From Deinococcales bacterium (GTDB lineage Bacteria; Deinococcota; Deinococci; Deinococcales; JAAFIG01): a stretch of 55,421 nucleotides of DNA. A program made the position numbers and the translations under genes. Of this stretch, positions 13,260 to 51,387 are shown one piece after another. How positions within the stretch are numbered: position 1 is the first letter of the stretch; every line of letters starts with the position of its first letter. Location: the NCBI GenBank assembly GCA_043778225.1, contig JAYWGM010000004.1, positions 1 to 55,421 of the forward strand. Reading direction: 5' to 3'. Below the pieces are notes generated by a model that had not been told where the DNA came from, searched no databases, and saw nothing but the letters and a program-made list of their open reading frames with translations.

Positions 13260-16200
13260 TTACAATTGCTTTAACGCATTTTGAAATAAAGTCAACCCAC
13301 TGCGTCCGCGCTCACCACGGTGATAACGTGGATGTTGCCAATCAAAAATATGATTTTCTGGGTGTGGCATTAAACCAAGCACATTGCCAGCCGCATTGGT
13401 AATCCCCGCAATGCTCGAGAGGCTGCCATTGGGGTTGGCTGGGTACTCAAGCCCTGAGTAACGCAGTGCCACCAGATTATTGTCCTCGAGATGCGCCAAG
13501 GTTACCGCGTCGCACAAGAAACGACCTTCACCATGCGCGATTGGGGTATCCAGACCATCCTCGAGACCAGCCAGCCAGAAACTGCTCGAGTTTTGGTTCG
13601 CCTCGAGTGTTACCCAACGGCACTCAAAATGACCCTGAGCGTTATAGGTCAAGGTTGAAGTTCTGGGTTCGACATGACCGGGCAGCACACCAGCTTTGAC
13701 CAATGTTTGAAAACCATTGCAAATACCCAGCACGGGCTTACCACTGGCAACAAAATTCTCGAGTTGCTCGCCAAGGCGTTCGCGCAAAGCAAGCGCCCAC
13801 ATCACACCCGCGCCGAGGTCATCGCCATAAGAAAAACCACCGGGGACAATTAGAAGACCATAATCCTCGAGTTTGCGCGTCCCAGCAAAAAGCTGATTCA
13901 AATGCACGATTTCTGGGTTGCCACCGGCTAATTCTATGGCGAGGGCTGCATCGTGGTCTCGGTTTGTGCCGTTGGCATGAATGATGATTGTTTTGGTTTT
14001 TGTAGGGACAGACCCCTGTGTCTGTCTTGCCTTTGCTTCACGCAAGGGCGAGGGCGAGGCAAGCGACCCAAGCCCGCGAGCGACCACGCCCGTCAGGTGC
14101 GCGTTTGTGGTCAAGAGAGGTGCTGTTGTAGGGTCAAGAAGCCCCGCCCCTACGGTTGGAACAGGGGTTGGGGCGATTTCGTCACGCCATGCCATCTCGA
14201 GGACATCAATCGGACATTGAATGACTTCATCCATACCCCATAAAGCGTTAAATTCTGGTTCGGCAGTGACGATTCCAATTTGCGACAAGGCAATTCCAGC
14301 AAACAGTGCCTCGAGTTGGGTTTTATGGTCTGGGCGCACCTCGAGAATAATTCTGCCAGCCGTCTCACTAAATAAAATAAGCTGTTGCTCGAGATTATTG
14401 GCGACCTCGAGTAAATTCCATGAGACACCAAGTCGTCCTGATAGTGCCATTTCTGCTAGGGCAACCGCTAAACCGCCTTCGGAACAGTCATGAGCGCTTT
14501 GCACCCAACCGTTTTGAATTGCATTGTGCAAAGCACGGTAACGCTCAAGCGGTTTCTGCACAGGTTGTGGTACAGTTCCACCCTCGAGATTATGAATAAT
14601 GGCATAATGACTTGCGCCCAGTTCATCTCGAGTTTCACCCAGCAGATAGACCAAGTTCCCCGCAGATTTCAAATCCATTGTGACAGTTTTTGTTGCGTCT
14701 GGTACAATTCCGATTGCACTGATTAAAAGCGTTCCTGGAATGGCATGTTTATTGCCATCCTCATCGGTATATTCATTATACAAACTGTCCTTGCCCGAAA
14801 CAAACGGCGTGCCGTAAGCAAGCGCCGCGTCATAACAAGCACGAGAGGTCTCGAGCAGGCTGCCTAAGCGGTCTGGTAGGGTTGGATTGCCCCAACAAAA
14901 ATTGTCAAGAATTGCAATTTGGTCTGGGTTCGCTCCGACACACACAGCATTTCGGACTGCTTCGTCTATTGCCGCCCACGTCATGGCATATGGGTCGGAA
15001 ATTCCAAATTGCGGACAGATACCATTGGAAATCGCAATCGCTTTTTTGGACTTGCCGGGATTTGGCACGATGACTGCCGCATCTGAAGGTCCATGATGAG
15101 CAGCGCCAACCAACGGACGAATGGCAGTACCGCCCTTAATTTCATGGTCAAAAAGACGAATTATTTTTTCTCGAGAGCGGATGTTCGGGTGCGCCAAAAG
15201 GTTAAGCAAATCAATTTCAGGGTCAATTTCTCTAGGGTCGCGCTCGGTTAAGGGAGCAGTTACAGGAACAAGTACAGCAGCTTTTAATTGACGTTGTGGA
15301 ATACCTTCATGGAGAAACTCGAGGTCAAGTTCACCAACGACTTTTTTATCGTGGGTTAAGACCAATCGTCTCGAGTCTGTGAATTCACCAAGGTTGACCA
15401 GTTCAACATCTTGCGAATCGCATAGGGCTTGTAAGCGCGGCAGGTTGGCACTGCAAACACTTAGCACCATGCGTTCTTGGGCTTCGGATAACCAGATTTC
15501 CCACGGACGCAGACCGGGGTATTTAAGCAATACTTTCTCGAGGCGAATGTATGCGCCCAAGTCCTTGCCCATTTCACCAACGGCACTGCTAAATCCACCC
15601 GCGCCACAATCGGTCATGGCGGTATACAGCCCTTCGGCTTTGGCACGAAGAATCACTTCCTGAGTTTGTTTTTCGGTAATCGGCTGCCCAATTTGCACAC
15701 TGGTACTGGCAATTTCGGAAGTGCTACTGTCCATCTCGAGACTCGAGAAAGTCGCACCACGCAGACCATCCCGCCCAGTCCGCCCGCCAATCGCAATAAT
15801 GTAGTCCCCAGCTTGTGCCTCGAGTGGCTTGGCATTTTTAACCGAGGCTGGCAGAATACCAACGCAACCACAATACACAAGTGGATTAGCGATATAACCA
15901 TTGTGGTAAAAAACCGCTCCATTGACGGTTGGAATACCCATTTTGTTGCCGTAATCTTCGATACCACGCACCACGCCCTCTTGAATCCGACGCGGATGCA
16001 ACACACCATCAGGCACGGACTCCTGCTCGAGGTTGCCAAAGCACAACACATCCATATTCGCAATTGGTTTTGCGCCGAGTGCCAGCACATCACGAATTAC
16101 GCCACCGACACCGGTATTTGCCCCACCGAACGGCTCGAGGGCGCTTGGGTGATTATGGGTTTCGACTTTGACGGCAATATCAAAATCATCATCGAATTCG

Positions 16201-17024
16201 ATAATCCCAGCGTTATCCACAAAGGCAGAGCGCACCCACGATTTATTTAAGTCTTTGGTTGCCTTGGCAATAAAAGTTTTCAGCAAGCCATCCACCACTT
16301 CGCCTGTATTGGTTTCAATCCGCGCCCGAAAAGTTTTATGGACACAATGCTCTGACCACGTTTGGGCAATCATCTCGAGTTCGACATCGGCGGCTGGGCG
16401 GTTTTCGCGTTCGTAATAGGCTTTGACGGCTTGCATCTCGAGTAAATCCAGTGCTAGGCGGCGTTCTTTGGACACCTCGAGCAGACGTGTATCGGTTGCG
16501 CCGCGCAAGTCGGTGTACTCGACTTCGGCGCTGGAAAGGTTCGCGTGTTCAACAAATGGCGGGGTGATTTCTTGGTTTAGGGTGAAGCGCTCGATAACTT
16601 CGTTGGCACGTTCGTGGGCTAAGACTGTTAGTTCCTCGAGCGATATATTTTGGGCATACTCAAAGCGCTCACCAGTGGCAGCCGCCTCAAGCGGGATACC
16701 TAAAATTTTTGCTGCCTCGAGTAAGCTATCGGCGGCTGAATCAGTTACGCCAGCTTGGAGGGTGACTTCAAAGAACTCCCCCACTCGCGCTTCTTGACCC
16801 CAAAGATGCACCTTACGGGCTTGGGTCGCTTCGCTCGAGTTTCCCCCTCGTTGAGGGGGGTTAGTTTTAACGGTAAATGCTTCGGTCACAGGGTCACAGA
16901 GGACTTCACGGCATAGGCGTTCAACAGATGATTGCTCGAGGTTTTGGGCTTTGACAAAATACAATCTCGAGCGGTTGACCTCGAGAACATGGTGATTACG
17001 GATTTCGATTCGATATATGGACAT
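13260..17024 (-). CDS. purL: Phosphoribosylformylglycinamidine synthase, single-chain fusion of PurS-like N-domain, PurL and PurQ glutaminase
   Basis: QTWSEHCVHKTF, KVETHNHPSALEPFGGA, DCGAGG, SEAQERM, LDNFCWGNP; PurQ motifs GGFSYGD, LGICNGFQ and MPHPE. Confidence 0.97.
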   Translation of the reverse strand: MSIYRIEIRNHHVLEVNRSRLYFVKAQNLEQSSVERLCREVLCDPVTEAFTVKTNPPQRGGNSSEATQARKVHLWGQEARVGEFFEVTLQAGVTDSAADSLLEAAKILGIPLEAAATGERFEYAQNISLEELTVLAHERANEVIERFTLNQEITPPFVEHANLSSAEVEYTDLRGATDTRLLEVSKERRLALDLLEMQAVKAYYERENRPAADVELEMIAQTWSEHCVHKTFRARIETNTGEVVDGLLKTFIAKATKDLNKSWVRSAFVDNAGIIEFDDDFDIAVKVETHNHPSALEPFGGANTGVGGVIRDVLALGAKPIANMDVLCFGNLEQESVPDGVLHPRRIQEGVVRGIEDYGNKMGIPTVNGAVFYHNGYIANPLVYCGCVGILPASVKNAKPLEAQAGDYIIAIGGRTGRDGLRGATFSSLEMDSSTSEIASTSVQIGQPITEKQTQEVILRAKAEGLYTAMTDCGAGGFSSAVGEMGKDLGAYIRLEKVLLKYPGLRPWEIWLSEAQERMVLSVCSANLPRLQALCDSQDVELVNLGEFTDSRRLVLTHDKKVVGELDLEFLHEGIPQRQLKAAVLVPVTAPLTERDPREIDPEIDLLNLLAHPNIRSREKIIRLFDHEIKGGTAIRPLVGAAHHGPSDAAVIVPNPGKSKKAIAISNGICPQFGISDPYAMTWAAIDEAVRNAVCVGANPDQIAILDNFCWGNPTLPDRLGSLLETSRACYDAALAYGTPFVSGKDSLYNEYTDEDGNKHAIPGTLLISAIGIVPDATKTVTMDLKSAGNLVYLLGETRDELGASHYAIIHNLEGGTVPQPVQKPLERYRALHNAIQNGWVQSAHDCSEGGLAVALAEMALSGRLGVSWNLLEVANNLEQQLILFSETAGRIILEVRPDHKTQLEALFAGIALSQIGIVTAEPEFNALWGMDEVIQCPIDVLEMAWRDEIAPTPVPTVGAGLLDPTTAPLLTTNAHLTGVVARGLGSLASPSPLREAKARQTQGSVPTKTKTIIIHANGTNRDHDAALAIELAGGNPEIVHLNQLFAGTRKLEDYGLLIVPGGFSYGDDLGAGVMWALALRERLGEQLENFVASGKPVLGICNGFQTLVKAGVLPGHVEPRTSTLTYNAQGHFECRWVTLEANQNSSSFWLAGLEDGLDTPIAHGEGRFLCDAVTLAHLEDNNLVALRYSGLEYPANPNGSLSSIAGITNAAGNVLGLMPHPENHIFDWQHPRYHRGERGRSGLTLFQNALKQL
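14002..14155. repeat. REPIN-like doublet of GTAG-type REP hairpins, in frame in the PurL-PurQ linker, carrying two nested mini-elements
   Basis: GTAGGGACAGACCCCTGTGTCTGTC on + (14002) and CCGTAGGGGCGGGGC...TTGCCTCGCCC on - (14155 to 14052). The second matches the intergenic REP at 22212-22237. Confidence 0.85.
14063..14140 (-). mobile_element. Two 39-bp mini-elements, one (14080-14118) nested inside the other
   Basis: Outer copy with the inner removed: TTCTTGACCCTACAACAGCACCTCGCGGGCTTGGGTCGC. Inner copy: TCTCTTGACCACAAACGCGCACCTGACGGGCGTGGTCGC. Mobility is inferred. Confidence 0.75.
16791..16829 (+). mobile_element. 39-bp mini-element inside a REP-like hairpin (about 16774-16862), in frame in the purL 5' region
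   Basis: TTCTTGACCCCAAAGATGCACCTTACGGGCTTGGGTCGC. The flanking AACTCCCCC...CCCCCTC-N4-GAGGGGG resembles the intergenic hairpin at 30434-30475. Confidence 0.75.
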
Positions 17025-17058
17025 TTGATTTCTCCTCCAATGGATGTCTCGCTGGGCA

Positions 17059-17973
17059 TCATTGATTGGCTGGCGGGTTTTTAGGATTAAATCCGAGCGT
17101 ATTTAGATAAGAGGGAAAAACTTCCCAAGCTCCGAAAACATTGGCTTCTTCAGTGTTAAGTTTTGCGAGTAAACAAAAATTATAAATTGTTTGAGTATCC
17201 GAATGTTCTATGTCTATTTTTTCCAGAGCGAGAGAATAAATAAATGATTCTAGTGCCATTTGTGCTTCTCCAACCTCAAGCATAGATTGAACGTGTAACC
17301 TAGCATCTTGAGACATTTGTTTTGTATATTTTTCGCCGTCATTTTCTAAATACTGTTCAATTCTGCGAAATCGAATATGTGGATTTTCGAGAACTTTTCG
17401 AGTCGCTTCAATAATAATTTGATGTTCAGCTTCATGAACTCGAGATGCAAAAGACTCTAAGGTGTCGCCTTCTATGAACGGCACTTCTCGAGTCACAATT
17501 GGTTCTCCAGCATCTAATTCTGGAATCACATGATGCACCATACAACCCGACCTCGAGATTTTACCTTGTTGCCATGCTGCAAAAGCATCTTCGATGGCGT
17601 GAGCGCCAGCAAATTCGTTTGGTAAGGCAGGATGTAAGTTGATAATCCTACCTAAAAATGTTTGGCAAACCGCACCAGAATCAATGTGCATCCAACCCGC
17701 CAGCACAATTAAATCTGGGTTGTGTTGCTCGAGCATTTTAGCTAAATCTGTGTCGTATTCGGCTCGAGATTTACCAGCGTCTTTGTAGGGTTTTAGCGGA
17801 AAATACAGCGTAGGAATACCAGCGTTTTTTGCTCGCTCGAGACCAAATGCGGTTTTGCGATTTGAGACAACCAGCACAATTTCTGCCTCGAGTTGCCCAT
17901 TTTGGGTGGCATCAATCAGGGCTTGGAGATTTGTGCCAGCGCCAGAAATCAGGACAGCGATTCGGGGTTTCAT
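17059..17973 (-). CDS. purN: Phosphoribosylglycinamide formyltransferase with an unrelated C-terminal extension of about 105 aa
   Basis: IAVLISGAGTNLQALI, VLAGWM, INLHPALP, GCMVHHV, LDAG and EAEH motifs. PurN homology ends near aa 197. Confidence 0.93.
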   Translation of the reverse strand: MKPRIAVLISGAGTNLQALIDATQNGQLEAEIVLVVSNRKTAFGLERAKNAGIPTLYFPLKPYKDAGKSRAEYDTDLAKMLEQHNPDLIVLAGWMHIDSGAVCQTFLGRIINLHPALPNEFAGAHAIEDAFAAWQQGKISRSGCMVHHVIPELDAGEPIVTREVPFIEGDTLESFASRVHEAEHQIIIEATRKVLENPHIRFRRIEQYLENDGEKYTKQMSQDARLHVQSMLEVGEAQMALESFIYSLALEKIDIEHSDTQTIYNFCLLAKLNTEEANVFGAWEVFPSYLNTLGFNPKNPPANQ

Positions 17974-18524
17974 TCGTATTTCCGTTCAAACAAATTTGGG
18001 TAATTGGTCACAAATCCATTTGCATCTACGGTGATAACCGCCGTGAACTGACTTTCCAAACCTGTGAATTGGTATTCAAACTCGCTTAGTCGTTCATAAC
18101 GTTGAAGAGCAGTTCTCACTGTTAGTTTTGGACATTGCACGAATAAAACATTGATGTCTGCGCTTTGTCCTATCTCGAGGTTCAAACGACGAATTGGTAA
18201 GGTATTCGTAAACGGGGTACAACTGATGTCCAAATCGGTACAATTCGTCCATTCTCCTTCGTCATTGCCATAGAAATCACCACGCGACCAGCAGTCCTTT
18301 TGGTCACGATAAAACTTGTGTTCTTCGCCATACGGTAAATGACCAATCCGAAAATTTATTACTTGCCATTGATGATTGAGCCAGATGCGATAATGCAACT
18401 TAAAGGCTTCTCCATTCTCAATTCCAATCACAATCGAATCAACAAAAAGAGCATCCTTTTCTTCATCAAAAATCAGTGCTTCAAAGCCACTCTGCATTTT
18501 GGGCTGCCAGTACAAATGCTGCAT
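17970..18524 (-). CDS. Putative glycolipid-binding domain protein (DUF1089)
   Basis: CTDLDISCTPFTNTLPIRRL, QRYERL and ITVDANGFVTNYPNLF motifs. Confidence 0.85.
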   Translation of the reverse strand: MQHLYWQPKMQSGFEALIFDEEKDALFVDSIVIGIENGEAFKLHYRIWLNHQWQVINFRIGHLPYGEEHKFYRDQKDCWSRGDFYGNDEGEWTNCTDLDISCTPFTNTLPIRRLNLEIGQSADINVLFVQCPKLTVRTALQRYERLSEFEYQFTGLESQFTAVITVDANGFVTNYPNLFERKYE

Positions 18525-18541
18525 CTTTAAGACCTCTGTCC

Positions 18542-19897
18542 TTATCTTAATTCATCCACCAATTCAGCCGCTAAACCCACATACGAACTCGGACGCATCT
18601 CGAGAAGGCGCTTCTTATCAGTCTCTGGAATCTCGAGACTCGAGATAAAAGCTCGCATCGTGACAGCATCAACCTGTTCACCTCGGGTCAGGTCTTTCAT
18701 GCGTTCGTATCCGTTTGGCACATTATATTTTCGCATTACGGTTTGGATTGGTTCGGCAAGCAGCATCCATTCATTCTCGAGGTCAGCCGCCATTTTGCTT
18801 GGGTTCACTTCGAGTTTTGCAATCCCAGCTTTGAGGCTCGAGAAGGCAATAACCATGTGCGCCAAGCCCACACCAATGTTACGCAGCGCACTCGAGTCGG
18901 ATAAATCGCGTTGTAATCTCGAGACTTGTAGTTTACTTGCCAGATGCCCAAAAGTTGCGTTTGCCAAGCCAAGGTTGGCTTCGGCGTTTTCAAAATCTAT
19001 TGGGTTGACTTTGTGCGGCATGGTACTGCTGCCGATTTCGCCAGCAGAGGTTTTTTGCTTAAAATACCCGAGCGAAATGTATTGCCAAATGTCTTGGGCA
19101 AAACCAAGCGCAATTTGATTAAAACGCATTAAAGTATGAAACGTCTCGGCAATAAAATCATGGGATTCAATTTGTGTGGTTAGAGGATTATAGGTCAAAC
19201 CCAAACTATTCACAAATTCTCGAGCCAAACCACGCCAATCAGCATCTGGATAAGCGCTGGTGTGAGCATTAAAATTCCCCACTGCTCCAGCAAATTTACC
19301 AAGAAATTCTTGAGTCTCGAGTTGCTTGTACTGGCGTTGCCAACGGTACACAAAGACCGCCATTTCCTTACCAAGCGTGGTTGGGCTGGCAGGTTGCCCA
19401 TGGGTTCGCGCCATCATTGGAAGGCTTTTATACAGTTCAGACAAGCTCGAGACAAGTTGCATCACCTCAAGCAAAAGCGGTTGCACCTGTAATTTTAGTG
19501 CATCATGCAACATCATTGCGTAAGCCAGATTATTAATGTCTTCGGAAGTACAGGCAAAATGTACAAATTCTCCAACATCCTCGAGCGTTGTAGCTTTCAG
19601 TTTTTCGCGGATAAAATACTCCACAGCTTTAACATCATGCCGTGTGGTTCGCTCGATTTCCTTGATTCGTTCGGCATCTGTGACCGAGAAACTTGCTTTG
19701 AAATTCTCGAGTAAGCCAACTTCATCTACTGTTAAAACGCGAATACACTCGAGCTTAGATTCACATAAGAATTCTAGCCACTCGAGTTCTACAATCACAC
19801 GATACTTCATCAAGGCAAATTCAGAGACATAATCCTCAAGCGGCTGCGTGACCCTTGCATACCGCCCATCTATCGGGGAAATACTTTTGATACTCAT
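18542..19897 (-). CDS. purB: Adenylosuccinate lyase
   Basis: SPIDGRY, TRHDVKAVEY, HFACTSEDINN, ARTHGQPA and GSSTMPHKVNPIDFEN motifs. Confidence 0.97.
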   Translation of the reverse strand: MSIKSISPIDGRYARVTQPLEDYVSEFALMKYRVIVELEWLEFLCESKLECIRVLTVDEVGLLENFKASFSVTDAERIKEIERTTRHDVKAVEYFIREKLKATTLEDVGEFVHFACTSEDINNLAYAMMLHDALKLQVQPLLLEVMQLVSSLSELYKSLPMMARTHGQPASPTTLGKEMAVFVYRWQRQYKQLETQEFLGKFAGAVGNFNAHTSAYPDADWRGLAREFVNSLGLTYNPLTTQIESHDFIAETFHTLMRFNQIALGFAQDIWQYISLGYFKQKTSAGEIGSSTMPHKVNPIDFENAEANLGLANATFGHLASKLQVSRLQRDLSDSSALRNIGVGLAHMVIAFSSLKAGIAKLEVNPSKMAADLENEWMLLAEPIQTVMRKYNVPNGYERMKDLTRGEQVDAVTMRAFISSLEIPETDKKRLLEMRPSSYVGLAAELVDELR

Positions 19898-22197: not shown

Positions 22198-22211
22198 TAT
22201 TTAACCCCAAA

Positions 22212-22237
22212 CCGTAGGGGCGGGGCTTGCCTCGCCC
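22212..22237 (+). repeat. GTAG-type REP hairpin; uninterrupted (empty-site) version of the REP in the purL linker
   Basis: CCGTAGGGGCGGGGCTTGCCTCGCCC between purF and purD. Confidence 0.85.
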
Positions 22238-22256
22238 AACCCTGCGAATGCCTCAT

Positions 22257-23762: not shown

Positions 23763-23884
23763 TCGTGAAGCTCCGAAATAGTAGGTTCAAACACGTTTTA
23801 CCAGTGTTGCAAAAAAACTCGGGATGGTCAAGGCAGTTTGCACTCGAGTTTGCACTTTGCACCCAGTCTATTTATGCTTGGCAC

Positions 23885-24658
23885 ATGAGCATCGAAGGTT
23901 CTGGCGGTTTACACATTATTATTACAGGTGCTTCTAGCGGCATTGGCGAGGCAACGGCTCGAGTTTTGGCGGGGGCTGGGCATCGGCTGGTGCTGGCAGC
24001 GAGGCGTGAGGATGTTCTCGAGAAACTGGTGTCAGAACTCAATCCGTCGGGCAAACGCATTATCGGTGTGCCGTGCGATGTCCGCGACCAAGCCGATTTA
24101 GAACGCCTCGTGACTCGAGCGCGGGCAACTTTTGGAGCGGTGCAGGTGGTCTTTAACAATGCTGGCATGGGTTCGGCTGGGCAGTCGTGGTGGTATCGCT
24201 CACCCAAGGAAATCACGGCGATGTTTGAAACCAATTTACTTGCGCCTTACTGGTTGTCGCAGTTGGTACTGCCCGAGATGTTGTCTGAAAAAAATGGGCA
24301 TATTATCAACATGGGCAGCATTCAGGGGATGATTGCCATCTCAAGTTCCTACGGCGCAAGTAAATTTGGTCTGCGTGGCATGAGCATTTCCTTAAACCGT
24401 GAGTTGCACGGCACGGGGGTTCATGCCTCCTTAATTTCAGCTGGCTTTGTGAAAACCCCTTGGACCGAAAAAGGCGGCAAGCGCCCACTGCCGATGGTCA
24501 GCCCAGAAGTGATTGCCCAAGCCGTCTTGCGCTTACTCGAGCATCCTCGAGCCGAGGTGGTTGTACCCAGTTGGTATCGTCCATTGGTCTGGCTTGAGCG
24601 GATGTTTCCAGCCATTGGCGATTATGTGGTACAAAATTCTTGGAAACGCGAAAAGTAA
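23885..24658 (+). CDS. SDR family oxidoreductase
   Basis: TGASSGIG, NNAG and YGASK motifs; leaderless TATGCT-6nt-ATG at 23885. Confidence 0.9.
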   Translation: MSIEGSGGLHIIITGASSGIGEATARVLAGAGHRLVLAARREDVLEKLVSELNPSGKRIIGVPCDVRDQADLERLVTRARATFGAVQVVFNNAGMGSAGQSWWYRSPKEITAMFETNLLAPYWLSQLVLPEMLSEKNGHIINMGSIQGMIAISSSYGASKFGLRGMSISLNRELHGTGVHASLISAGFVKTPWTEKGGKRPLPMVSPEVIAQAVLRLLEHPRAEVVVPSWYRPLVWLERMFPAIGDYVVQNSWKREK

Positions 24659-25179: not shown

Positions 25180-25193
25180 ACCAAATGTAAAGG

Positions 25194-30291: not shown

Positions 30292-30478
30292 GGTGTAGGG
30301 AAGTTCGTAGGGGCGACGGAGCTTGAGGCGACGGGGGTCGCCCTTTTGGCTATTGGGTGTAGGGAGTTCGTAGGAAAAACGTAAGCTCTATCTTGACCAC
30401 ATACGCGCACCTGACGGGCGTGTGGTCGCCTACAAACTCCCCCCGCCTGCGGCGACCCCCTCGAGTGAGGGGGTTTAA
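30292..30478. repeat. Intergenic cluster of REP-like hairpins (GTAG-type and CCCCCTC/GAGGGGG-type)
   Basis: GTAGGGGCGAC...GGGGTCGCCC; duplicated GGTGTAGGGA(A)GTTCGTAGG; stem GGGAGTTCGTAG/CTACAAACTCCC; CCCCCTC-GAGT-GAGGGGG. Confidence 0.8.
30391..30429 (+). mobile_element. Mini-element copy (intergenic)
   Basis: TCTTGACCACATACGCGCACCTGACGGGCGTGTGGTCGC. Differs from the nested purL copy core by one substitution and a 2-nt indel. Confidence 0.75.
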
Positions 30479-30492
30479 GAATTTGGCTTGAT

Positions 30493-31746
30493 TTATTTGG
30501 CGTTGGCGTTCCAAAAGGTTACGGCATCGTTTAGTGCTTGGCGGGCTGTTTTTGCACCTAAGAATGCGGCTTCGATGTTGTCGTTAAAGTTCTTATAGAC
30601 ATTATCGGTGTTCTTGGGTGGACTCCAGCCGGGCGTAATAAAGCGCCCCGTGCCACTGACTAAGGAAGTCGCCACATCGAGGGCATCGTTTGGATTGGCG
30701 GCTTTCAGGTCTGGGTCGGTCTCTGCGCCTTTGGTGGTTGGCACGATACCAGCCAGTTTGGCAAATTGGACTTGGGCTTTGTTGTTGGTCATAAACATCG
30801 CAAACAAAGCAGCTTCTTTTTGGTTTTTACCAGCTTTTGGAATCACCAAGCTCATGCTGCCGCCGGTTTGTACCCCACCCGCGCCAAGTGGGGCTGGAAC
30901 GACTTTGGTTTTGCTGTAGATGTCCTTGTTGGCATCCTTGACCCGCACAAGGGCTTGTGCGCCACCAACGATAAAGGCGCTCTTGCCTTGGCTGTAGTAT
31001 TCGTTGTTCAGTTGGAAGGCTTCTTTACGCAACAGGTCTTGCGGGATAAAGTCGCCTTTCATCAGGTCAATAAATTTTTGCAACAAAGCAGTGTGCTTGG
31101 CGGTGTTGAAAGCAGCCTTGCCGCCAGCAAAGAGTGGCAGTCCCTCGAGATAAAATTGCCCTAGGAAGCTCGCGCCGTTGGGGTCTTTAATCGGTGGCAA
31201 CCAACCATATGAACCGGTGCGTTGCTTGATGATTTTTGAAGCCGTCAAGAGTTCGGAAATGGTCTTGGGAACTTTTGAGATACCGGCTTTTTTCATGATT
31301 TCGGTGTTGTACGCCATCACCCCTTGGTCAGTCCAGCCATACCACGGGTAGCCATAGTTTTTGCCATCTATCACAAACATACTCAGGGTATTGTTCCAGA
31401 ACTGGGCTTGGAGTTGGCTCATCGTGGTCAGGTCGTTGATGGGTGCAAGCAGACCGTTTTGGGCGGCGGCGGCGGTTGCATCCTGCCATAAATTGACCAC
31501 ATCTGGGCTTTTGCCAAGGGCAATTGCAGCTTGGAGGTCGCGCTCCATGGTGTCTTGCTTATCTACCAATTTGACTTCGATGTTTGGATTGGCTTTCTGG
31601 AATTCGTTAATCACACCTTGTAGGTATGGGTCGAACTTTGGCGATAAATACCAAGACCAAAACTCGAGCGAGACTTTATTTTGAGCTAAGGCAGCCATGC
31701 CTAATGCACCAAAGGCACTTGCGAGTAAAATCCAACGCTTTTTCAT
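30493..31746 (-). CDS. Sugar ABC transporter substrate-binding protein
   Basis: Signal peptide MKKRWILL...ALA-Q, EFQKANPNIEV, PDVV and DGKNYGYPWY motifs; AGGAGG RBS before 31746. Confidence 0.92.
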   Translation of the reverse strand: MKKRWILLASAFGALGMAALAQNKVSLEFWSWYLSPKFDPYLQGVINEFQKANPNIEVKLVDKQDTMERDLQAAIALGKSPDVVNLWQDATAAAAQNGLLAPINDLTTMSQLQAQFWNNTLSMFVIDGKNYGYPWYGWTDQGVMAYNTEIMKKAGISKVPKTISELLTASKIIKQRTGSYGWLPPIKDPNGASFLGQFYLEGLPLFAGGKAAFNTAKHTALLQKFIDLMKGDFIPQDLLRKEAFQLNNEYYSQGKSAFIVGGAQALVRVKDANKDIYSKTKVVPAPLGAGGVQTGGSMSLVIPKAGKNQKEAALFAMFMTNNKAQVQFAKLAGIVPTTKGAETDPDLKAANPNDALDVATSLVSGTGRFITPGWSPPKNTDNVYKNFNDNIEAAFLGAKTARQALNDAVTFWNANAK

Positions 31747-40581: not shown

Positions 40582-40639
40582 TATATCTTGCGTTTAGAAA
40601 ATCACTGACCTCGAGTGGCTGTATGGTAGAGTATTTTCT

Positions 40640-43600: not shown

Positions 43601-43855
43601 ACTGGCAAAGTTGACTCGAGCATGATTGACTTTGGCGACCCCCTAATTAAAAAAGCCGCCGAAGTGGTCTGTGAAGAAGGCTACGCCGCCGTCTCGAGGC
43701 TACAACGCCGTTTAAGTGTCGGTCATGCCCGAGGTGGCAAACTGATAGATGCGCTCGAGTCTATGGGGATTGTCGGCGGGTACAAAGGCAGCAAGTCTCG
43801 GGAAGTGCTGATAACTTCTGACCAGTTACCAGAGTATTTTGGAAAACCAAATTAG
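40640..43855 (+). CDS. ftsK: DNA translocase FtsK
   Basis: TM N-domain, coiled coil, [39 protein letters not shown], and gamma domain [12 protein letters not shown]. Confidence 0.97.
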
Positions 43856-43885
43856 TCGGCTATACTTAATACAAGAGGTGAAGTT

Positions 43886-44149
43886 ATGACCCTACAACTG
43901 GAGCTAACCAAAAACACCGAGCAAATTCTGACCAGAACCGCACTACAAAATGGAATGCAGCCCGCCGAATATGTAACCTATTTGCTCGAGCAAAGTTTGA
44001 AACCAAAAACGGGGGTCGAACTGCTTGAACAATGGCTTTCTGATAAAAATTCGGACAACCAACGCGAACAGAACGAAACTTTTAATGATTTGCAACATAA
44101 CTTAGACCAAAATCGAGTTGCTGACGCTCGCAAACTCTTTTCAAAATGA
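43886..44149 (+). CDS. Putative antitoxin upstream of the PIN toxin
   Basis: MTLQLEL...EQ..T...L...LDQNR...RKLF; ATGA overlap with the PIN gene. Confidence 0.7.
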   Translation: MTLQLELTKNTEQILTRTALQNGMQPAEYVTYLLEQSLKPKTGVELLEQWLSDKNSDNQREQNETFNDLQHNLDQNRVADARKLFSK

Positions 44150-44592
44150 TCATCCTGCTTGACACGGGTCCGTTAGGTATGGTCACAAATCCTAACTCCA
44201 ATCCTAAAAATTTGGCTTGTACGACATGGCTACTTGCCCAAGCTCGAGCAAAGCACCGAATTATCATTCCCGAGATTGCCGATTATGAATTGCGCCGCGA
44301 ACTTCTACGTGCCAACAAAACCAAAGGTTTAGAACGGCTTGAGCTATTTATCTCGAGTTTCGAGTATTTACCAATTGATACCGTCGCCATGAGAAATGCG
44401 GCTGAATGCTGGGCAAAAGCCAGACAGATAGGGCAACCAACAGCCCCAGATACTGCCCTTGATGGTGACATGATTCTGGTTGGGCAATGGAAAAGTTTGA
44501 ACGACCCTACTGCAATTATTGCTACAACTAACGTGCAGCACATTGCCAGATTCAGCAATGCACTGCATTGGGAAGAAATAACGAATGGGTGA
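44146..44592 (+). CDS. PIN domain (VapC-like) toxin
   Basis: ILLDTGPLG, PEIADYELRRELLR, LDGDMIL and IATTNVQH motifs. Confidence 0.88.
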   Translation: MIILLDTGPLGMVTNPNSNPKNLACTTWLLAQARAKHRIIIPEIADYELRRELLRANKTKGLERLELFISSFEYLPIDTVAMRNAAECWAKARQIGQPTAPDTALDGDMILVGQWKSLNDPTAIIATTNVQHIARFSNALHWEEITNG

Positions 44593-45130
44593 CTTCACTA
44601 GCCTTAATTTGCAAACTTCAATCATCGTCATGGGTGTCTCGGGTTGCGGCAAAACCACACTTGGGCGGTTACTAGCTTCTCGGCTCGAGTTGCCTTTTTT
44701 TGATGCCGACGATTTCCATGCTGAAACCAGTAAAGAAAAAATGATGGCTGGAATTCCACTGACCGATGCTGACCGCGCAACTTGGCTCGAGACACTGGCA
44801 GATATACTCGAGCAACAAATCTGTGTGCTGGCTTGCTCGGCACTAAAGGAAAAATACCGTCTCCAACTGGCTCGAGGTGCAAAAGTCACTTGGGTGTACT
44901 TACAGGGCAGCCAAGAATTAATTGTGTCTCGCTTGGCAGCTCGAGAGCATTTTTTTAATCCTGCACTGCTCGAGTCTCAGTTTGCAATCCTTGAAGAACC
45001 CACCCAAGCGATTGTACAAAGCATAAAACAGCCACTCGAGCAAATTCTCAAAGCTGTGCTTGGTGTATTGTCCACTTCGGATTTTCACCCTCATACCCTT
45101 AGAATGAGCCATGAAATCAAAAAAGGATAA
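44585..45130 (+). CDS. gntK: Gluconokinase
   Basis: MGVSGCGKTT, DADDFH, GIPLTDADR, ACSALK and LLESQF motifs. Confidence 0.93.
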   Translation: MGDFTSLNLQTSIIVMGVSGCGKTTLGRLLASRLELPFFDADDFHAETSKEKMMAGIPLTDADRATWLETLADILEQQICVLACSALKEKYRLQLARGAKVTWVYLQGSQELIVSRLAAREHFFNPALLESQFAILEEPTQAIVQSIKQPLEQILKAVLGVLSTSDFHPHTLRMSHEIKKG

Positions 45131-45133
45131 CTC

Positions 45134-46588
45134 ATGAATTTAGAAGCAGACATCGGCATTATCGGTTTGGCGGTGATGGGCGAAAACCTTGTGTTGAACA
45201 TGGCAAGTAAGGGTTTTACGGTTGCGGCATTTAACCGTACCACCTCCAAAGTCACGGCGTTCAAATCAGCCCGAGGCTCGAGTGAAAAAATTCTAGGCGC
45301 AACCTCATTGACCGATTTTGTGCAGTCCTTGGCGCGTCCGCGCCGCGTGATGCTGATGGTCAAGGCGGGTGAAGCCGTGGATTCAACCATCGCCCAATTG
45401 CTGCCTTTGCTCGAGGCTGGCGATATTATTATAGATGGTGGTAACAGCCACTTTGAGGATACCAACCGCCGCGTCAAGGAACTCGAGGCACATGGGATTT
45501 TATTTGTTGGTTCGGGTGTTTCGGGCGGCGAGGAAGGGGCGCTAAAAGGTCCAAGCATCATGCCGGGCGGCTCGAGTGCCGCTTGGCAGCATATCAAACC
45601 AATTTTTCAAGGCATTGCCGCCAAAGCCAAAGATGGTGCGCCGTGTTGCGAATGGCTGGGCGAGGCTGGGGCTGGGCATTTTGTCAAAATGGTGCATAAC
45701 GGCATCGAGTACGGCGATATGCAGATGATTTGCGAGGCGTACAGTTTGCTGCGTTTGGCTGGACTGGGCAATAGCCAAATTGCCGATGTCTTTACCGATT
45801 GGAATAAGGGCGAGTTAGAAAGTTACTTGGTCGAGATTACTGCCGAAATCCTGCGTAAAAAAGATGATGCCACGGGTCTGGATTTGGTGGACGTGATTCT
45901 CGATACGGCTGGACAAAAAGGCACTGGCAAATGGACTTCGACTGTGGCGCTCGATGTCGGTAGCCCAGCCAGCACCATTGCCGAAGCGGTTTTTGCGCGG
46001 TGCTTATCGGCACTCAAAGAAGAACGGGTTCGCGCCTCGAGCCTGATTGCCCCACCGCCAAGCCAAGCCATACAAAACCAAGCCGAATTTATTGAAGATG
46101 TGCGTCAGGCGCTTTTTGCCAGTAAAATCTGTTCCTATGCCCAAGGTTTCCAACTCATGCGCCTTGTAGCTGCCGAACAACAATGGAAACTCGAGTACGG
46201 TACGATTGCTGCAATTTGGCGTGGTGGCTGCATTATTCGGGCTGGTTTCCTCGAGAATATCCGTCAGGCGTATGCGACTGACTCGAGCCTCGCCAATTTA
46301 GTATTGGATTCGTACTTTGCGACCATTATTCAAAGTCACCAAGCGGCTTGGCGACGGGTGGTCTGCACTGCCACACTCAATGGCATTTGGATTCCAGCTT
46401 TCTCGAGTGCGCTGGCATATCTGGATGGCTACCGTACAGCACGGCTCAGCACCAACATTTTGCAAGCCCAACGCGATTACTTTGGAGCGCACACTTACGA
46501 GCGCACCGATAAAGCACGCGGTCAGTTTTTTCATACCAATTGGACTGGGCAGGGCGGCACAACCAGTGCCAGTACCTATAGTGTCTAA
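45134..46588 (+). CDS. gnd: 6-phosphogluconate dehydrogenase (NADP, decarboxylating)
   Basis: GLAVMGENL, GVSGGEEGA, KMVHNGIEYGDMQ and QAQRDYFGAHTY motifs. Confidence 0.98.
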   Translation: MNLEADIGIIGLAVMGENLVLNMASKGFTVAAFNRTTSKVTAFKSARGSSEKILGATSLTDFVQSLARPRRVMLMVKAGEAVDSTIAQLLPLLEAGDIIIDGGNSHFEDTNRRVKELEAHGILFVGSGVSGGEEGALKGPSIMPGGSSAAWQHIKPIFQGIAAKAKDGAPCCEWLGEAGAGHFVKMVHNGIEYGDMQMICEAYSLLRLAGLGNSQIADVFTDWNKGELESYLVEITAEILRKKDDATGLDLVDVILDTAGQKGTGKWTSTVALDVGSPASTIAEAVFARCLSALKEERVRASSLIAPPPSQAIQNQAEFIEDVRQALFASKICSYAQGFQLMRLVAAEQQWKLEYGTIAAIWRGGCIIRAGFLENIRQAYATDSSLANLVLDSYFATIIQSHQAAWRRVVCTATLNGIWIPAFSSALAYLDGYRTARLSTNILQAQRDYFGAHTYERTDKARGQFFHTNWTGQGGTTSASTYSV

Positions 46589-46597
46589 AGGACAATC

Positions 46598-48070
46598 ATG
46601 CCTAATTCCCTCGAGCCAACGGCGATTATTATTTTTGGTGCGTCTGGCGATTTAACCAAACGCAAACTTCTGCCAGCCTTGTACCAATTGGTGCAAGATG
46701 GTCATGCTCCTGAACAGTTTTGTATTATTGGCGTGGCTCGCACAGTCATGAGCCAGCAAGAGTACCAAACTGTGGCTCGAGAAGCGCTTGAAAAAGCCTA
46801 TAAAGTACCACTTGATGAAGCGGCTTGGCAGCGTTTTGCGGACATGCTCGATTACCAGCCGCTTGACTTTACCAGTTTAGAGGCATTTATTGCCTTGCGT
46901 CACCGACTCGAGACTGCCAAAATTTATAATTGGTTGTTTTACTGCTCTGTGCCGCCCAGTGCTTTTCCGGGCATCACCAAACAGCTTGGCGAATCTGGCT
47001 TAAACAACCAAGAGGCTGGTTGTACCCGTGTGATTGTCGAGAAGCCATTTGGTACAAACCTCGAGACCGCAAAAACCCTCAATCTCGAGTTGCACAAAGT
47101 ATTTGGCGAAGACCAAATTTACCGCATTGACCATTTTTTGGGCAAAGAAACGGTGCAGAATATCTTGGCACTGCGTTTTGCCAACACGATTTTCGAGCCG
47201 CTTTGGAATCGTAATTATGTAGACCATATCCAGATTACGGTGTCCGAAGATTTGGGCATGGAAGGGCGCGGTGCGTTCTATGAAGAAGCTGGAATTTTGC
47301 GCGACATGATTCAGAATCACATTATGCAGCTTTTGTGTTTTATCGCCCTCGAGCCACCTGTCGGTCCGTGGCAAGGCAGTATTCATCCTCTGGAGGCTGG
47401 AGCGCTGCGCGACGAGAAAGCCAAGGTGATTCGAGCGCTGCGTCCAATCAGCACCGATTTTTTAGCGGATTCGATTGTGCTGGGGCAGTACCAAGCTGGC
47501 GTGATTAGCACCGAAAAAGTAATTGGGTATCTCGAGGAAGCTAAAGTCAGTCCAGACTCGAGAACCGCTACGTTTGCCGCCCTGAAGGTCGAAATTGACA
47601 ATTGGCGTTGGGCGGGTGTGCCGTTTTATTTACGCAGTGGCAAGCGTTTACCCGTCAAAAGCACCGAAATTGCGATTGTTTTTAAGCGCCCACCTTTAGA
47701 TTTATTCCCACAACCAAGCCAGCCCAATATGCTCAGAATCAATATCCAGCCCAATGAGGGCGTAACCTTATCATTTGACGCTAAAATGCCGGGGCTTACT
47801 GCCGATTTACGCCCAGTCAACATGGATTTTAACTACTCCGATTTTGGCTCGAGTGGACCAACCGCCTACGAGCGCCTGATTCTGGACGCAATGCACGGCG
47901 ATGCCAGTCTATTTCCTCGCGGCGATGAAGTCGAAGCGTCTTGGGCTTGGATTGCGCCGTTGCTCGAGTGTGATGTGCCGTTGCACCATTATTTGGCTGG
48001 AACTTGGGGACCCGAAGAAGCCGAGGCTTTAATGGCAACTGACCGCGCTTGGCATAAGCTAGGCACATGA
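46598..48070 (+). CDS. zwf: Glucose-6-phosphate 1-dehydrogenase
   Basis: FGASGDL, EKPFG, RIDHFLGKE and RWAGVPFYLRSGK motifs. Confidence 0.98.
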   Translation: MPNSLEPTAIIIFGASGDLTKRKLLPALYQLVQDGHAPEQFCIIGVARTVMSQQEYQTVAREALEKAYKVPLDEAAWQRFADMLDYQPLDFTSLEAFIALRHRLETAKIYNWLFYCSVPPSAFPGITKQLGESGLNNQEAGCTRVIVEKPFGTNLETAKTLNLELHKVFGEDQIYRIDHFLGKETVQNILALRFANTIFEPLWNRNYVDHIQITVSEDLGMEGRGAFYEEAGILRDMIQNHIMQLLCFIALEPPVGPWQGSIHPLEAGALRDEKAKVIRALRPISTDFLADSIVLGQYQAGVISTEKVIGYLEEAKVSPDSRTATFAALKVEIDNWRWAGVPFYLRSGKRLPVKSTEIAIVFKRPPLDLFPQPSQPNMLRINIQPNEGVTLSFDAKMPGLTADLRPVNMDFNYSDFGSSGPTAYERLILDAMHGDASLFPRGDEVEASWAWIAPLLECDVPLHHYLAGTWGPEEAEALMATDRAWHKLGT

Positions 48071-48729
48071 ACCAAATTGTTTTTGAAAGTCCAGAAGCCC
48101 TCGCGGTAGCCGCCGCCAAGTCGTTTCAAGACTTAGCACTCGAGGCAATTGCAACTCGAGGGAGGTTTAATGTGGCACTGGCTGGCGGCAGCACGCCCAA
48201 AATTATTTATGAACAACTTGCGTTGCTCGAGTTACCTTGGGATAAAATCCATCTTTTTTGGGGCGACGAGCGCGGTGTAGCGCCAAACGATCCAAACAGC
48301 AATTATGGCATGGTCAAAACCGCACTGCTCGAGAAAATCAGTATTCCTTACAGCAACATCCATCGTATCAAAACCGAACAAAACATATTTATTGCCCTAG
48401 GAGAATATAAACTTGAGGTCGAAGATATTCAATTTGACTTGGTTCACCTTGGGCTTGGCACAGATGGTCATACGGCTTCTGTATTCCCAGCCAGTAACCT
48501 CGAAGCGCAACAACCCGTACAAATTACATTTCCAACACCTGGACTCGAGCCTCCAGTGCAGCGCATCAGCCTGAGTTTAGCCAAAATTAACGCGGCTTTG
48601 GTCAAACAATTTTTTGTGACTGGGGACAGTAAACGCGAAATTCTAAAAGAAATCTCGAGCGGCGAGGATTACCCCGCCGCTCGAGTGAAAAATGCCCAGT
48701 GGTGGCTGGATAACGCCGCTAAACTTTAG
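48067..48729 (+). CDS. pgl: 6-phosphogluconolactonase
   Basis: LAGGSTP, FWGDER, SNY and LGLGTDGHTASVFP motifs. Confidence 0.95.
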   Translation: MNQIVFESPEALAVAAAKSFQDLALEAIATRGRFNVALAGGSTPKIIYEQLALLELPWDKIHLFWGDERGVAPNDPNSNYGMVKTALLEKISIPYSNIHRIKTEQNIFIALGEYKLEVEDIQFDLVHLGLGTDGHTASVFPASNLEAQQPVQITFPTPGLEPPVQRISLSLAKINAALVKQFFVTGDSKREILKEISSGEDYPAARVKNAQWWLDNAAKL

Positions 48730-51256
48730 CGATGGCTCGAGCTGCTTTTTTACGGTTCTCTTGCCAGTCCTTAAAGAAGACTGCCATTGGCGCAACAATG
48801 TAAATGCTCGAGTACGTACCAACGATAATACCGATGACCAGAATAAAGCTAAAGTCGCGCAGCACTGGTCCACCCAGAATCAGCAGGGCAACCAACGGTA
48901 ACATTGTTGCAATACTGGTCATTAAAGTTCTCGAGAGGGTCTGGTTGATGCTGGTGTTGACGATATGGGCATAAGACTGCCCACGCATCACTTTTAAGTT
49001 CTCGCGGATACGGTCAGAGACAATAATGCTGTCGTTTAAGCTGTAACCAATTAGGGTCAGCACAGCAGCGACGGTGGTAATGGTAAATTCACGCCCAAGC
49101 AGGGCGTACAATCCAAAGCAAATAAAGACATCGTGCAGCACTGCAAAAATACTGCCCAGACCAAGAACCCAGTCAAAACGCACCGCCACATAGACCATCG
49201 TTAAACCAAGCGCCACAATCACCGCCAAAATTGTTTTGGTGGTTAATTCATTACCCACAGCTGCGCCAACGGTTTCGATGGTGTCCACTTTTGCGCCACT
49301 TATTTTTGCGACCGCATCGGAAATAACTTTGACTTCGTTGGCAGCACCATTTGTGCCGTTTTCTAAAGTACGAGTCCGCACCGAAAAATCCTTTAAGGCT
49401 TCGCCCGGCGTGTTGCTCTCGACCACGACAATACCGCCTTCGGTCACGCCCTCGAGTCCAGCTTTACCAACCACGCTACGCATCTGCTCGGAAGTGGTGG
49501 TTAATGGCGCTTTAATCAGGAGGCTTGTACCGGCTGTAAAATCCACACCGAAAATAAAGCCTTTGGTGAGCATTGCCACTAAGCCAAGCATCGCAAGGAC
49601 AACACTGGCGGTGGTAATAAACTTGGTCAGGCTCATAAAATCAAATTTGGGCGTAGCGAACCAGTCAGGGGCTTTGAACTTAAAGCGTTCTGCCATGAGC
49701 TCGAGCAACCACTTACTAAAAAACAAGTTCGAGAAGGTACTGGCAATAATACCAACTGCTAATGTTACCGCAAAGCCTTTAACTGGTCCGGTTGCATAAT
49801 TGTACAGCGCGGCTGCCGAGATTAAATGCGAGAAATTCACATCGAAAATAGTCCAGAAGCTATTGCCGAAACCGCCTTTAATCGAAGATTTTAGGCTCAG
49901 ACCATCGCGCATTTCTTCTTTGACCCGCTCGAAAGAAATGACGTTGCCGTCCACCGCACTACCAATGGTTAGAACCAAGCCTGCAATGCCCGGTAGGGTT
50001 AGTACCGAACCAAGACCAGCCATCATGCCGAAAATTGCCAAGCCCGAGAACAACAAGCCAAGGGCTGCAACTGTTCCAAAGAATAAGCCGTAGTATCCGT
50101 AGACCAGCACAAAAATAGCACCAATACCAATTAAGGCAGCCGTTAAACCTTGACGAATCGCATCCGCGCCAAGGGTCGGACCAATAGCCCGTGTCTCGAC
50201 GATATTGACTGGAATTCGCAATGCACCCGAACGCAGAACTAGGGAAAGGTCGTTGGCTTCCTCGAGTGAGAAATTGCCCGTAATCTGACCTTGTGAACTA
50301 ATCACACCGTTAATTCTGGGCGCACTCTGGACTTTATCATCCAGCACAATTGCAAAGCGTTTACCTGTATTATTGCGGGTTGTCTCAGAAAAAATTGAAG
50401 CCCCTTTAGGAGTCAACTCAAACGATACCGTTGGCTGTCCAAATTGATCGAATTGGGTCGAGGCTCGAGAAATTGCTTCGCCTGTTAAAAGGGCTGGCTC
50501 GAGGTCTGACGGCAGTAAATCAGCATCATTTTTTTCTCCAGCTTCTGGTTTTAAGAGCTTAAACTCGAGTTTGGCGGTCTTACCAATCAGGGCAATCGCA
50601 CGGGTTTGGTCGGCTTGCGATAAGCCCGGTAATTCTACCACAATGCGCTTCGTCCCCTGAATCTGTACCAAAGGCTCGGCAACACCAGTCTGGTTGACAC
50701 GATTCTCGATGACATTGCGAACCTGATTTAAGTCCTCGGTGGTGAACCCTGAAACTTTACTGGTGTCCGCCTCGAGCAGCACCCGCAAACCACCACGCAA
50801 ATCCAAACCACGGCTAATTGGTTCGGGCGCTTCGGCTAAGTAGACCACTTTGGCATCCTTAATTTTACTTGGCAAGGTGCGTTCAAGGGCTTTCCAAATC
50901 GTGGTGGTAACAGGATTTTTCGCATCGGCGTTAATGACACTAAACGAAATACCGTTTGGTTCGATTTTGACCGACTCGAGCTTAGGCAATGCGCCAGTCT
51001 CACCGATTTTCTTGGTCAGTTCGGCGGCTGTAATCGGGGTTTTAGGCGTGACCGACAAAGACTCAGTACGTGGCGCGAATGGCTTCCATAAGGCAAAAAT
51101 GCTACCAATGACAATTGCCAGCATCAGTAAGCCAGTAATCATGTGTGAAGTAAAAAAAGACTCTTGTGGCAAATTCTTTTTATTGCGGTTGTTTTTGTCG
51201 GCTCGTTCTCGGGCTTCTCGAGCCAGATTTTGGGCGCTTCGGTTTTTCATACTCAT
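48719..51256 (-). CDS. secDF: Protein translocase subunit SecDF (fused)
   Basis: GLDLRGG, RIVVELPG, IGPTLG, TLPGIAG, GVDFTAG, GYSLNDSIIVSDRIREN and GTYSSIY motifs. Confidence 0.97.
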   Translation of the reverse strand: MSMKNRSAQNLAREARERADKNNRNKKNLPQESFFTSHMITGLLMLAIVIGSIFALWKPFAPRTESLSVTPKTPITAAELTKKIGETGALPKLESVKIEPNGISFSVINADAKNPVTTTIWKALERTLPSKIKDAKVVYLAEAPEPISRGLDLRGGLRVLLEADTSKVSGFTTEDLNQVRNVIENRVNQTGVAEPLVQIQGTKRIVVELPGLSQADQTRAIALIGKTAKLEFKLLKPEAGEKNDADLLPSDLEPALLTGEAISRASTQFDQFGQPTVSFELTPKGASIFSETTRNNTGKRFAIVLDDKVQSAPRINGVISSQGQITGNFSLEEANDLSLVLRSGALRIPVNIVETRAIGPTLGADAIRQGLTAALIGIGAIFVLVYGYYGLFFGTVAALGLLFSGLAIFGMMAGLGSVLTLPGIAGLVLTIGSAVDGNVISFERVKEEMRDGLSLKSSIKGGFGNSFWTIFDVNFSHLISAAALYNYATGPVKGFAVTLAVGIIASTFSNLFFSKWLLELMAERFKFKAPDWFATPKFDFMSLTKFITTASVVLAMLGLVAMLTKGFIFGVDFTAGTSLLIKAPLTTTSEQMRSVVGKAGLEGVTEGGIVVVESNTPGEALKDFSVRTRTLENGTNGAANEVKVISDAVAKISGAKVDTIETVGAAVGNELTTKTILAVIVALGLTMVYVAVRFDWVLGLGSIFAVLHDVFICFGLYALLGREFTITTVAAVLTLIGYSLNDSIIVSDRIRENLKVMRGQSYAHIVNTSINQTLSRTLMTSIATMLPLVALLILGGPVLRDFSFILVIGIIVGTYSSIYIVAPMAVFFKDWQENRKKAARAIAKV

Positions 51257-51350
51257 AAGTACATCCTTATCAATCAGGAGCTATTATGCTCTTGGTCGGT
51301 TTATAAATTTAGTTTCTTTTGTTGGGAAAAACACCATTGGGTAGGGGCAG

Positions 51351-51387
51351 GCGACCATGCCCGCGAGGTGCATCTTATGGTCAAGAA
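51351..51387 (-). mobile_element. Mini-element copy (37 bp, intergenic) inside a GTAG REP (51341-51403)
   Basis: Minus strand TTCTTGACCATAAGATGCACCTCGCGGGCATGGTCGC. Removing it restores GTAGGGGCAGACCCCCATATCTGCTC. Confidence 0.75.

Follow-up and report, generated by a model that had tools for sequence, protein, structure and literature searches.

The window analysed here is the whole of a 55,421-nucleotide contig (C4; GenBank JAYWGM010000004.1) from the draft genome G000 of a Deinococcales bacterium (4.03 Mb in 107 contigs, 48.7% G+C). It contains five copies of a hairpin-forming repeat of 37–39 nucleotides (nt), referred to below as the mini-element, and three of these copies lie within one open reading frame (ORF). 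The ORF, at 13260–17024 on the minus strand, encodes 1254 amino acids (aa) and joins PurL (FGAR-AT linker, AIRS and AIRS_C) to a C-terminal PurQ-type amidotransferase, GATase_5, as assigned by Pfam; its N-terminal part has no Pfam family match. The ORF remains open across its three 39-nt copies, all of which are located in linkers between domains. Mini-elements can be carried in frame, then, within the linkers of an essential gene.

Two of the in-frame copies are nested. The outer copy, on the minus strand, consists of a left half at 14119–14140 (TTCTTGACCCTACAACAGCACC) and a right half at 14063–14079 (TCGCGGGCTTGGGTCGC), which together make 39 nt (22 + 17 nt). Its loop holds the inner copy, 39 nt at 14080–14118, in the identical orientation. 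The 78-nt nested pair in turn splits a repetitive extragenic palindrome (REP), a GTAG-tagged hairpin at 14045–14160 on the minus strand in the PurL-PurQ linker, which reads CCGTAGGGGCGGGGC^TTGCCTCGCCC. The third in-frame copy, 39 nt at 16791–16829 on the plus strand, sits within a different G+C-rich repeat in the linker that follows the N-terminal part of the fused ORF. The other two copies are intergenic: one at 30390–30429 (plus strand) occupies the 3′ loop edge of a GTTCGTAG...CTACAAAC hairpin, and the other, 37 nt at 51351–51387 (minus strand), lies inside a degenerate GTAG REP. All five copies had been placed by the initial annotation, with a length of 39 nt for the three intragenic ones and 37 nt for the copy at 51351, and both the positions and the lengths were confirmed. 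A gapped pattern made from the conserved blocks of the mini-element matches four times in the window and not once in 100 shuffles; the fifth copy is the outer one at 14063–14140, which is interrupted by the inner copy.

The window is a small sample of a large family. With an nhmmer profile made from 100 pattern matches, G000 as a whole gives 191 matches at E<10. Of these, 127 remain at E<1e-3 and 110 are full length, so that the further genomic copies anticipated by the initial annotation do exist. Some copies are solitary, some form tandem rows that repeat every 38 or 39 nt, and others are nested to three deep, nesting always taking place in the apical loop. Several kinds of DNA serve as hosts. 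GTAGG or its complement lies within 20 nt of 34 of the 110 full copies, marking GTAG-tagged REP hosts, and within REPs the mini-element is found in both orientations (9 and 18) at differing positions. The loop of another copy is host to 15 full copies, an array with a period of 7–9 lies within 40 nt of 20 of the 110, and further copies occupy fixed sites of a miniature inverted-repeat transposable element (MITE) with terminal inverted repeats. The initial annotation had named REP hairpins as the targets; octamer tandem arrays and the MITE are hosts as well.

The length of the insertion could be measured for 63 copies and is 39 nt in 32, 38 in 22, 37 in five, 36 in one, 41 in two and 45 in one. 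Within ORFs of at least 300 aa all five copies are 39 nt long, which bears out one half of the length contrast drawn initially between copies inside and outside genes; the other half is weakened, as insertions are 38 or 39 nt long and 39 nt is also the most frequent length outside ORFs.

Some features of the hosts can be mentioned here. The octamer arrays, with units such as AACCTTTT and GACCTTTT, belong to a set of 268 arrays of period 8 genome-wide, and the array unit is similar to the first eight bases of the mini-element. The MITE is about 150–250 nt long, has terminal inverted repeats (ATACCGAATTAACTTAATCA..), and is represented at C101:35150-35300, C85:4100-4300, C98:44450-44750 and C71:1-260. 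Its copies hold one or two mini-element sites, and which of these are filled or empty varies by copy. Partial mini-elements that lack the first nine bases occur directly after full copies at C2:43779-43864 and C28:98046-98113. The partial unit starts just past the 5′ arm of the stem, extends to the 3′ arm and looks like the product of slippage across a folded hairpin.

That the mini-element is an inserting unit, and not a fixed part of a longer repeat, follows from comparison of filled and empty sites. Excision of the nested pair at 14063–14140 restores CCGTAGGGGCGGGGC^TTGCCTCGCCC, and the identical 26 bases stand uninterrupted at 22212–22237 on the plus strand, in an intact paralogue of the host REP that represents the empty site; the initial annotation had said as much, correctly. 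Genome-wide, the exact 22-mer of the joined flanks, in other words an empty-site paralogue, is present elsewhere in G000 for 65 of the 110 full copies. Orthologous empty sites, also looked for at the suggestion of the initial annotation, were found in genomes of the same genus (about 80% DNA identity). The REP of the PurL-PurQ linker is uninterrupted in G003, G005, G006 and G007, and G006 has a copy in another REP of that linker in the opposite orientation. At the 30391 site, G007 has the corresponding hairpin without a copy. At 16791 and 51351 no clean orthologous empty site was seen among the relatives compared, because the relatives hold other repeats there. In a further example, a REP upstream of a transposase-like gene discussed below is filled in G000, holds a different subfamily in G006 and is empty in G001 and G007.

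A different view would be that there is no independent unit, and that the mini-element, as a conserved module of REPs and MITEs or as a protein-binding motif, owes its spread to recombination between repeats or to gene conversion between them. Many copies do occur at fixed places of the MITE, several host classes are themselves repeats, and intergenic repeats turn over fast between species, all of which this view would accommodate. Nevertheless, the mini-element is found with precise boundaries in six or more host contexts that are unrelated to one another, a given position in the MITE is occupied in some of its copies and vacant in others, one species has the element in the linker of a single-copy gene where four others do not, and G000 and G006 have different subfamilies in one and the same REP. 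The view is therefore most improbable. The mini-element is very probably a mobile, non-autonomous unit, as the initial annotation had proposed; the genomic copies, the empty sites and the strand-specific nesting described here agree with entry into hairpin loops without a regular target duplication, and no Rfam family accounts for it.

Several observations concern the PurL-PurQ locus itself. The linkers of the fused protein, in the window and in the orthologues L119-L128, are built of REP hairpins that are translated in frame, and the fusion in G003 and G007 is likewise an in-frame read-through, as far as can be judged by eye. A second REP type (GTAGGGACAGACCCCTGTGTCTGTC..) is intact at 14001–14031, also in the PurL-PurQ linker, and this type carries mini-elements elsewhere in the genome. 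Contigs of two public sequencing runs join 14076 to 14118, thus skipping the inner copy, at a depth equal to that of the genome. The shorter side of this joint measures only 26 letters and may come from another locus, and so the joint says nothing about polymorphism.

The anatomy of the mini-element is well defined. One or two variable leading bases (mostly T, TG or TC) are followed by TCTTG and a covarying stem of 5–7 bp; above it is an apical hairpin, also conserved, of the form GC(A)CC-loop-GGGC, in which the A is bulged, and after the second arm of the stem the copy closes with TCGC. The element carries no gene and is 38–39 nt long, with rare copies of 36–45 nt. The blocks TCTTG, GCACCT, CGGGC and TCGC are conserved across the superfamily, and the 5′ foot, TCTT or TCTTG, is present in 76 of 76 unique cores; GTAG belongs to the host REPs. 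In this set the foot of the stem is made of the pairs T-G, G-C, A-T, C-G and C-G. The outer pair 5 is CG in 37 cores, AT in 26, TA in three and TG in three, with seven mismatches, and the pair that follows it is TA in 27, CG in seven, AT in two and GT in two, with 38 mismatches. In the apical stem only the closing pair varies (GC in 63, CG in two). Rarer variants change both arms together, as in GACTC/GAGTC, GAACC/GGTTC, GATTCC/GGAATC and GCCC/GGGC. The initial statement that each copy can fold is borne out by this covariation. Rfam, consulted as the initial annotation had advised, gave no match but a tRNA for the whole window at the gathering score, and none at E<=1 for 13900–17000 or for two copy-bearing loci; no family matches the mini-element.

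The superfamily is confined to one family of uncultured Deinococcales. In a scan with one genome per species, full-length copies were found in 19 of 118 loci, and the 14 with known record titles are all metagenome-assembled genomes named 'Deinococcales bacterium'. A strict pattern has matches in 17 of 18 genomes of the same family and in one of 22 genomes of four sister families (a single match), against 0–1 match per genome for a reversed control pattern. A pattern reduced to the conserved blocks (TCTTG..CACCT..CGGG) finds 15–324 copies in each of 15 relatives out of the 16 examined in the family. G002 stays at control level, with one match versus two for the control, as do 64 genomes of the four sister families (0–6 matches). 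In G010 the stems differ (TCTTGCTC.., TCTTGATCC..) and the conserved blocks are retained.

Insertions lie 3′ of a C, often at C^T. Among 99 copies with unique flanks, the 5′ flank has C at -4 in 63 and at -3 in 60; position -2 is C in 46 or T in 43, position -1 is T in 53, G in 23 and C in 16, and position +1 is T in 63. Of 36 independent host contexts, 16 allow C^T to be read at both junctions and 12 allow TT, and no other dinucleotide fits more than five. The junctions have no target duplication of fixed length; element and host overlap by 0–5 nt, most often by C-T-N. A classical MITE derived from a DDE transposon was rejected as a description of the mini-element on this ground. Nesting is strand-specific, with the inner copy in the same orientation as the outer in 15 cases and in the opposite orientation in none.

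These data fit an element that acts as a single-stranded hairpin, is cut at its foot and is joined 3′ of a C in exposed loops. The best mechanism on offer is single-strand cut-and-paste by an enzyme of the HUH-Y1 class, to which we would give a probability of roughly 0.4; the repeat family, its insertion into sites that stand empty elsewhere, the covariation, the strand-specific nesting, the junction statistics and the restriction to one family are observed, and the single-stranded intermediate, the positions of cleavage and the enzyme are what we infer. The strand written here would fold and would be recognised as single-stranded DNA. Cutting or copying would take place at the hairpin's foot, and the product would then be inserted into exposed single-stranded DNA on the 3′ side of a C, with C^T as the most frequent site. 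Such targets would include GTAG-tagged REPs and other copies of the mini-element, in each case at their loops, as well as octamer arrays and the fixed sites of the MITE, and joining at the C^T that ends a resident copy would produce tandem arrays. An HUH-Y1 enzyme acting in trans would be the most economical and the most likely catalyst. The candidate is a 228-aa gene resembling those of REP-associated tyrosine transposases (RAYT), located at C32:27219-27902 (L160:1619-2302, minus strand).

The candidate emerged from a scan of the 12 ORFs that lie between two mini-element copies, which are all housekeeping genes except this one. Its product scores 36 bits on Pfam Y1_Tnp and 58.6 bits on NCBIfam REP_Tyr_transpos, which is under the cut-off of 80, and a profile of its orthologues has E. 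coli TnpArep (4ER8) as its sole PDB match (E = 4e-5). The HxH motif and the C-terminal Tyr are invariant in nine orthologues, which also have a hypervariable, REP-encoded central stretch. The gene stands between trpE-like and HIT/pabA genes in several genera, and it was found in all but two of 18 family relatives; weaker matches occur in six of 22 genomes of other families. In G002 the genes that flank the RAYT locus are adjacent on a contiguous syntenic stretch with no RAYT between them, so that this genome is without both the RAYT-like gene and the mini-element, the latter being at control level only. The TnpArep of E. coli cleaves single strands of DNA between a C and a T, with the distance to the REP hairpin varying, and is able to transfer strands (PMC3479197). 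GTAG REPs flank the RAYT-like gene and are also contained in it, and one of these REPs carries a mini-element. A pair of inverted GTAG REPs lies within the reading frame itself, between the HxH motif and the catalytic Tyr, and GTAGG sites occur inside RAYT-like orthologues of other genomes, other families included.

All transposase-type matches found in G000 lie on contigs other than that of the window (C26, C28, C32, C65 and C93), in agreement with the initial remark that the window holds no cognate enzyme. The genome's only IS605 copy, a TnpA of IS605 type with TnpB on C28, was rejected as the source of the mini-element, its ends being unrelated. C93 has a second, weaker TnpB-type match. GIY-YIG/Ssn nucleases, a lead from PMC11893778, were also set aside, as G000 has no match to PF01541.

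A number of observations weigh against an HUH-Y1 enzyme as the agent. DNA folding energies (-4 to -10 kcal/mol; z-scores for single copies between -0.5 and -2.7) are unremarkable and lend the fold little support; because they are modest, the case for the fold rests on covariation. The mini-element has neither a GTAG nor a CGTC tag, and E. coli TnpArep requires GTAG in cis for cleavage (PMC3479197). In 20 of the 36 host contexts the two junctions are not both readable as C^T, and several reverse insertions in REPs fall at T^C or C^C and include an additional base that varies. The orientation of copies is unbiased with respect to local GC skew (44 vs 45), a skew not validated as a marker of replication here; a lagging-strand mechanism might be expected to leave a bias. 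G002 is a small genome that is also without REPs by the pattern tried, and the absence of the element may therefore reflect a general loss of repeats. G005 holds 78 copies and no RAYT was found in it, its RAYT locus being unassembled. Finally, RAYT genes adjoin REPs and by a rough count about one fifth of REPs carry a mini-element, so that copies beside the RAYT gene are not significant. The HUH-Y1 mechanism is held at only about 0.4 because of the missing GTAG tag, the many junctions other than C^T and the possibility that the joint absence in G002 is due to streamlining. The HUH/Y1 mobilisation put forward in the initial annotation thus gains circumstantial evidence (5′ junctions with a C, frequently as C^T, a RAYT-like gene on another contig and the joint absence in G002) and is still an inference.

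The mini-element might also be mobile by other means, either as an RNA copy that is reverse transcribed, as proposed for the small dispersed repeats of cyanobacteria, or through a class of enzyme not yet recognised. The one or two variable leading bases do resemble a donor flank or untemplated filler, the 5′-truncated partial copies on C2 and C28 directly follow full copies, and the T-G wobble with which the stem invariably starts can pair on one strand only. The contexts, namely short tandem arrays, the MITE and nesting, match the cyanobacterial case. On the other hand, the sole RVT_1 match of G000, a 454-aa ORF on C65, was judged from its sequence not to be intron-like, and the extent of the partial units, from the end of the 5′ arm to the 3′ arm, equally fits slippage across a folded hairpin. 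Movement of this kind is thus rather unlikely.

Of the systems known to us, the closest in kind are the small dispersed repeats (SDRs) of cyanobacteria, compared here by features and not by sequence. SDR1-8 of Nostoc and related cyanobacteria (Elhai et al. 2008, Genome Res 18:1484) are said to be 21–27 nt long, to nest in themselves, to occur in short tandem arrays and in minitransposons, to form a hairpin with compensatory changes and to be limited to one clade. Like them, the mini-element is very small, gene-less, dispersed and confined to a clade; it nests in itself (15 full copies, to three deep), occurs within short tandem arrays (20 of 110) and at MITE sites, and has a hairpin backed by compensatory changes. 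It differs in its length of 37–39 nt, in belonging to Deinococcota rather than cyanobacteria, and in having the loop of a GTAG REP as its commonest host. SDR5 is treated in PMC4390886. A search for literature on SDR-like or nested REP repeats in Deinococcota found nothing relevant. The initial annotation did not recognise the element as described; it alluded to cyanobacterial repeats but overlooked SDRs as a close conceptual precedent.

The resemblance to REP, bacterial interspersed mosaic element (BIME) and REPIN families, which are mobilised by RAYT (TnpArep) in E. coli and Pseudomonas, for example (PMC3479197; see also PMC3116915 and PMC3733652), is also considerable: the mini-element is a high-copy, imperfect hairpin of 20–40 nt with a conserved bulge, its genome carries a vertically inherited RAYT-like gene, and many of its junctions can be read as C^T, the dinucleotide that TnpArep cleaves. 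In contrast to REPs and REPINs, it is without the GTAG or CGTC tag at the 5′ foot, it is nested or in tandem instead of forming inverted doublets, and it inserts into REPs. With IS200/IS605 and their gene-less derivatives, which move by single-strand 'peel and paste', it appears to share strand-specific insertion on the 3′ side of a short target and the lack of a regular target duplication, and on the proposed mechanism it would also be recognised as a folded hairpin. Unlike them, it consists of one hairpin and not of distinct left and right ends, and in place of a tetra- or pentanucleotide target it needs little more than one C, in many cases followed by T.

The movement of repeats only a few dozen bases long has posed a question ever since SDRs were described in 2008, and this Deinococcales family makes it testable. 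There are hundreds of young copies in about 20 related genomes, filled and empty sites are precise, and targeting is strand-specific. G002, which has neither the mini-element nor the RAYT-like gene, is a natural negative control, and the single candidate enzyme can be purified. The mini-element and the SDRs of cyanobacteria might even be members of one class of minimal mobile DNA, widespread and as yet without a name, in which each element is a lone hairpin that enters exposed loops and is moved by a domesticated RAYT-type enzyme acting without its GTAG tag or by a novel enzyme, a generalisation that we regard as doubtful. If it is true, the joint occurrence of short tandem arrays and nesting mini-elements in both Deinococcales and cyanobacteria would point to one shared machinery.

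The mini-element itself serves as a target. On C26, an insertion sequence (IS) of about 1.16 kb at 30448–31609 (L129) splits the innermost of three nested copies, leaving GCAC-CTT-[IS]-CTT-ACGGGC, and intact versions of this triple nest are present on C85 and C101. The protein of the IS is an RNA-guided transposase of the IS110 family (NF033542, 208 bits vs a cut-off of 140). Its leader is 185 nt long, has a folding z-score of -3.2, and in its fold has a small hairpin flanked by CGCACCU and CCGUAAG; these segments match the two sides of the mini-element loop. Among nine related IS loci examined, both halves of the element surround the IS in four (G000, G003, G015 and G016) and the right half is present in two more. 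On the basis of these sequences, it appears that an IS110-family element with a leader resembling a bridge RNA targets the loop of the mini-element and is in this sense probably its parasite. Such use of the loop as a landing site adds a third layer of parasitism. Like REP-targeting IS621 and other IS110/IS1111 elements, the IS on C26 and its relatives land in the loop of a hairpin, here that of the mini-element; the difference from the mini-element is that the IS parasitises it. Relatives of the IS in other genomes of the family (L131-L136) split mini-elements likewise.

One may ask whether an RNA-guided recombinase of this IS110 family also moves the mini-element in trans, with crossover at a CT core. 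The IS lies in the loop within the same range of a few nucleotides as nested copies and has CTT on both sides, junctions of the mini-element often have CTN in common, and its conserved termini would make a conserved circle junction (GGTCGC-T(N)-TCTTGACC). Yet the guide-like segments of the IS leader, as we read them, fit the loop and the IS's own ends and not the termini of the mini-element. The IS is found in only eight of 19 family genomes, and was not found in G007 (94% complete), which has 110 copies of the mini-element. Furthermore, mini-element targets are diverse and a bridge RNA specifies one target, and a double-stranded circle of 38 bp, made implausible by the stiffness of DNA, would be a physically unlikely donor. 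Movement by an IS110-family recombinase is accordingly improbable. As a minor observation, nine bases of the MITE inverted repeat (TAAGTTAAT) also begin the left end of the IS110 element.

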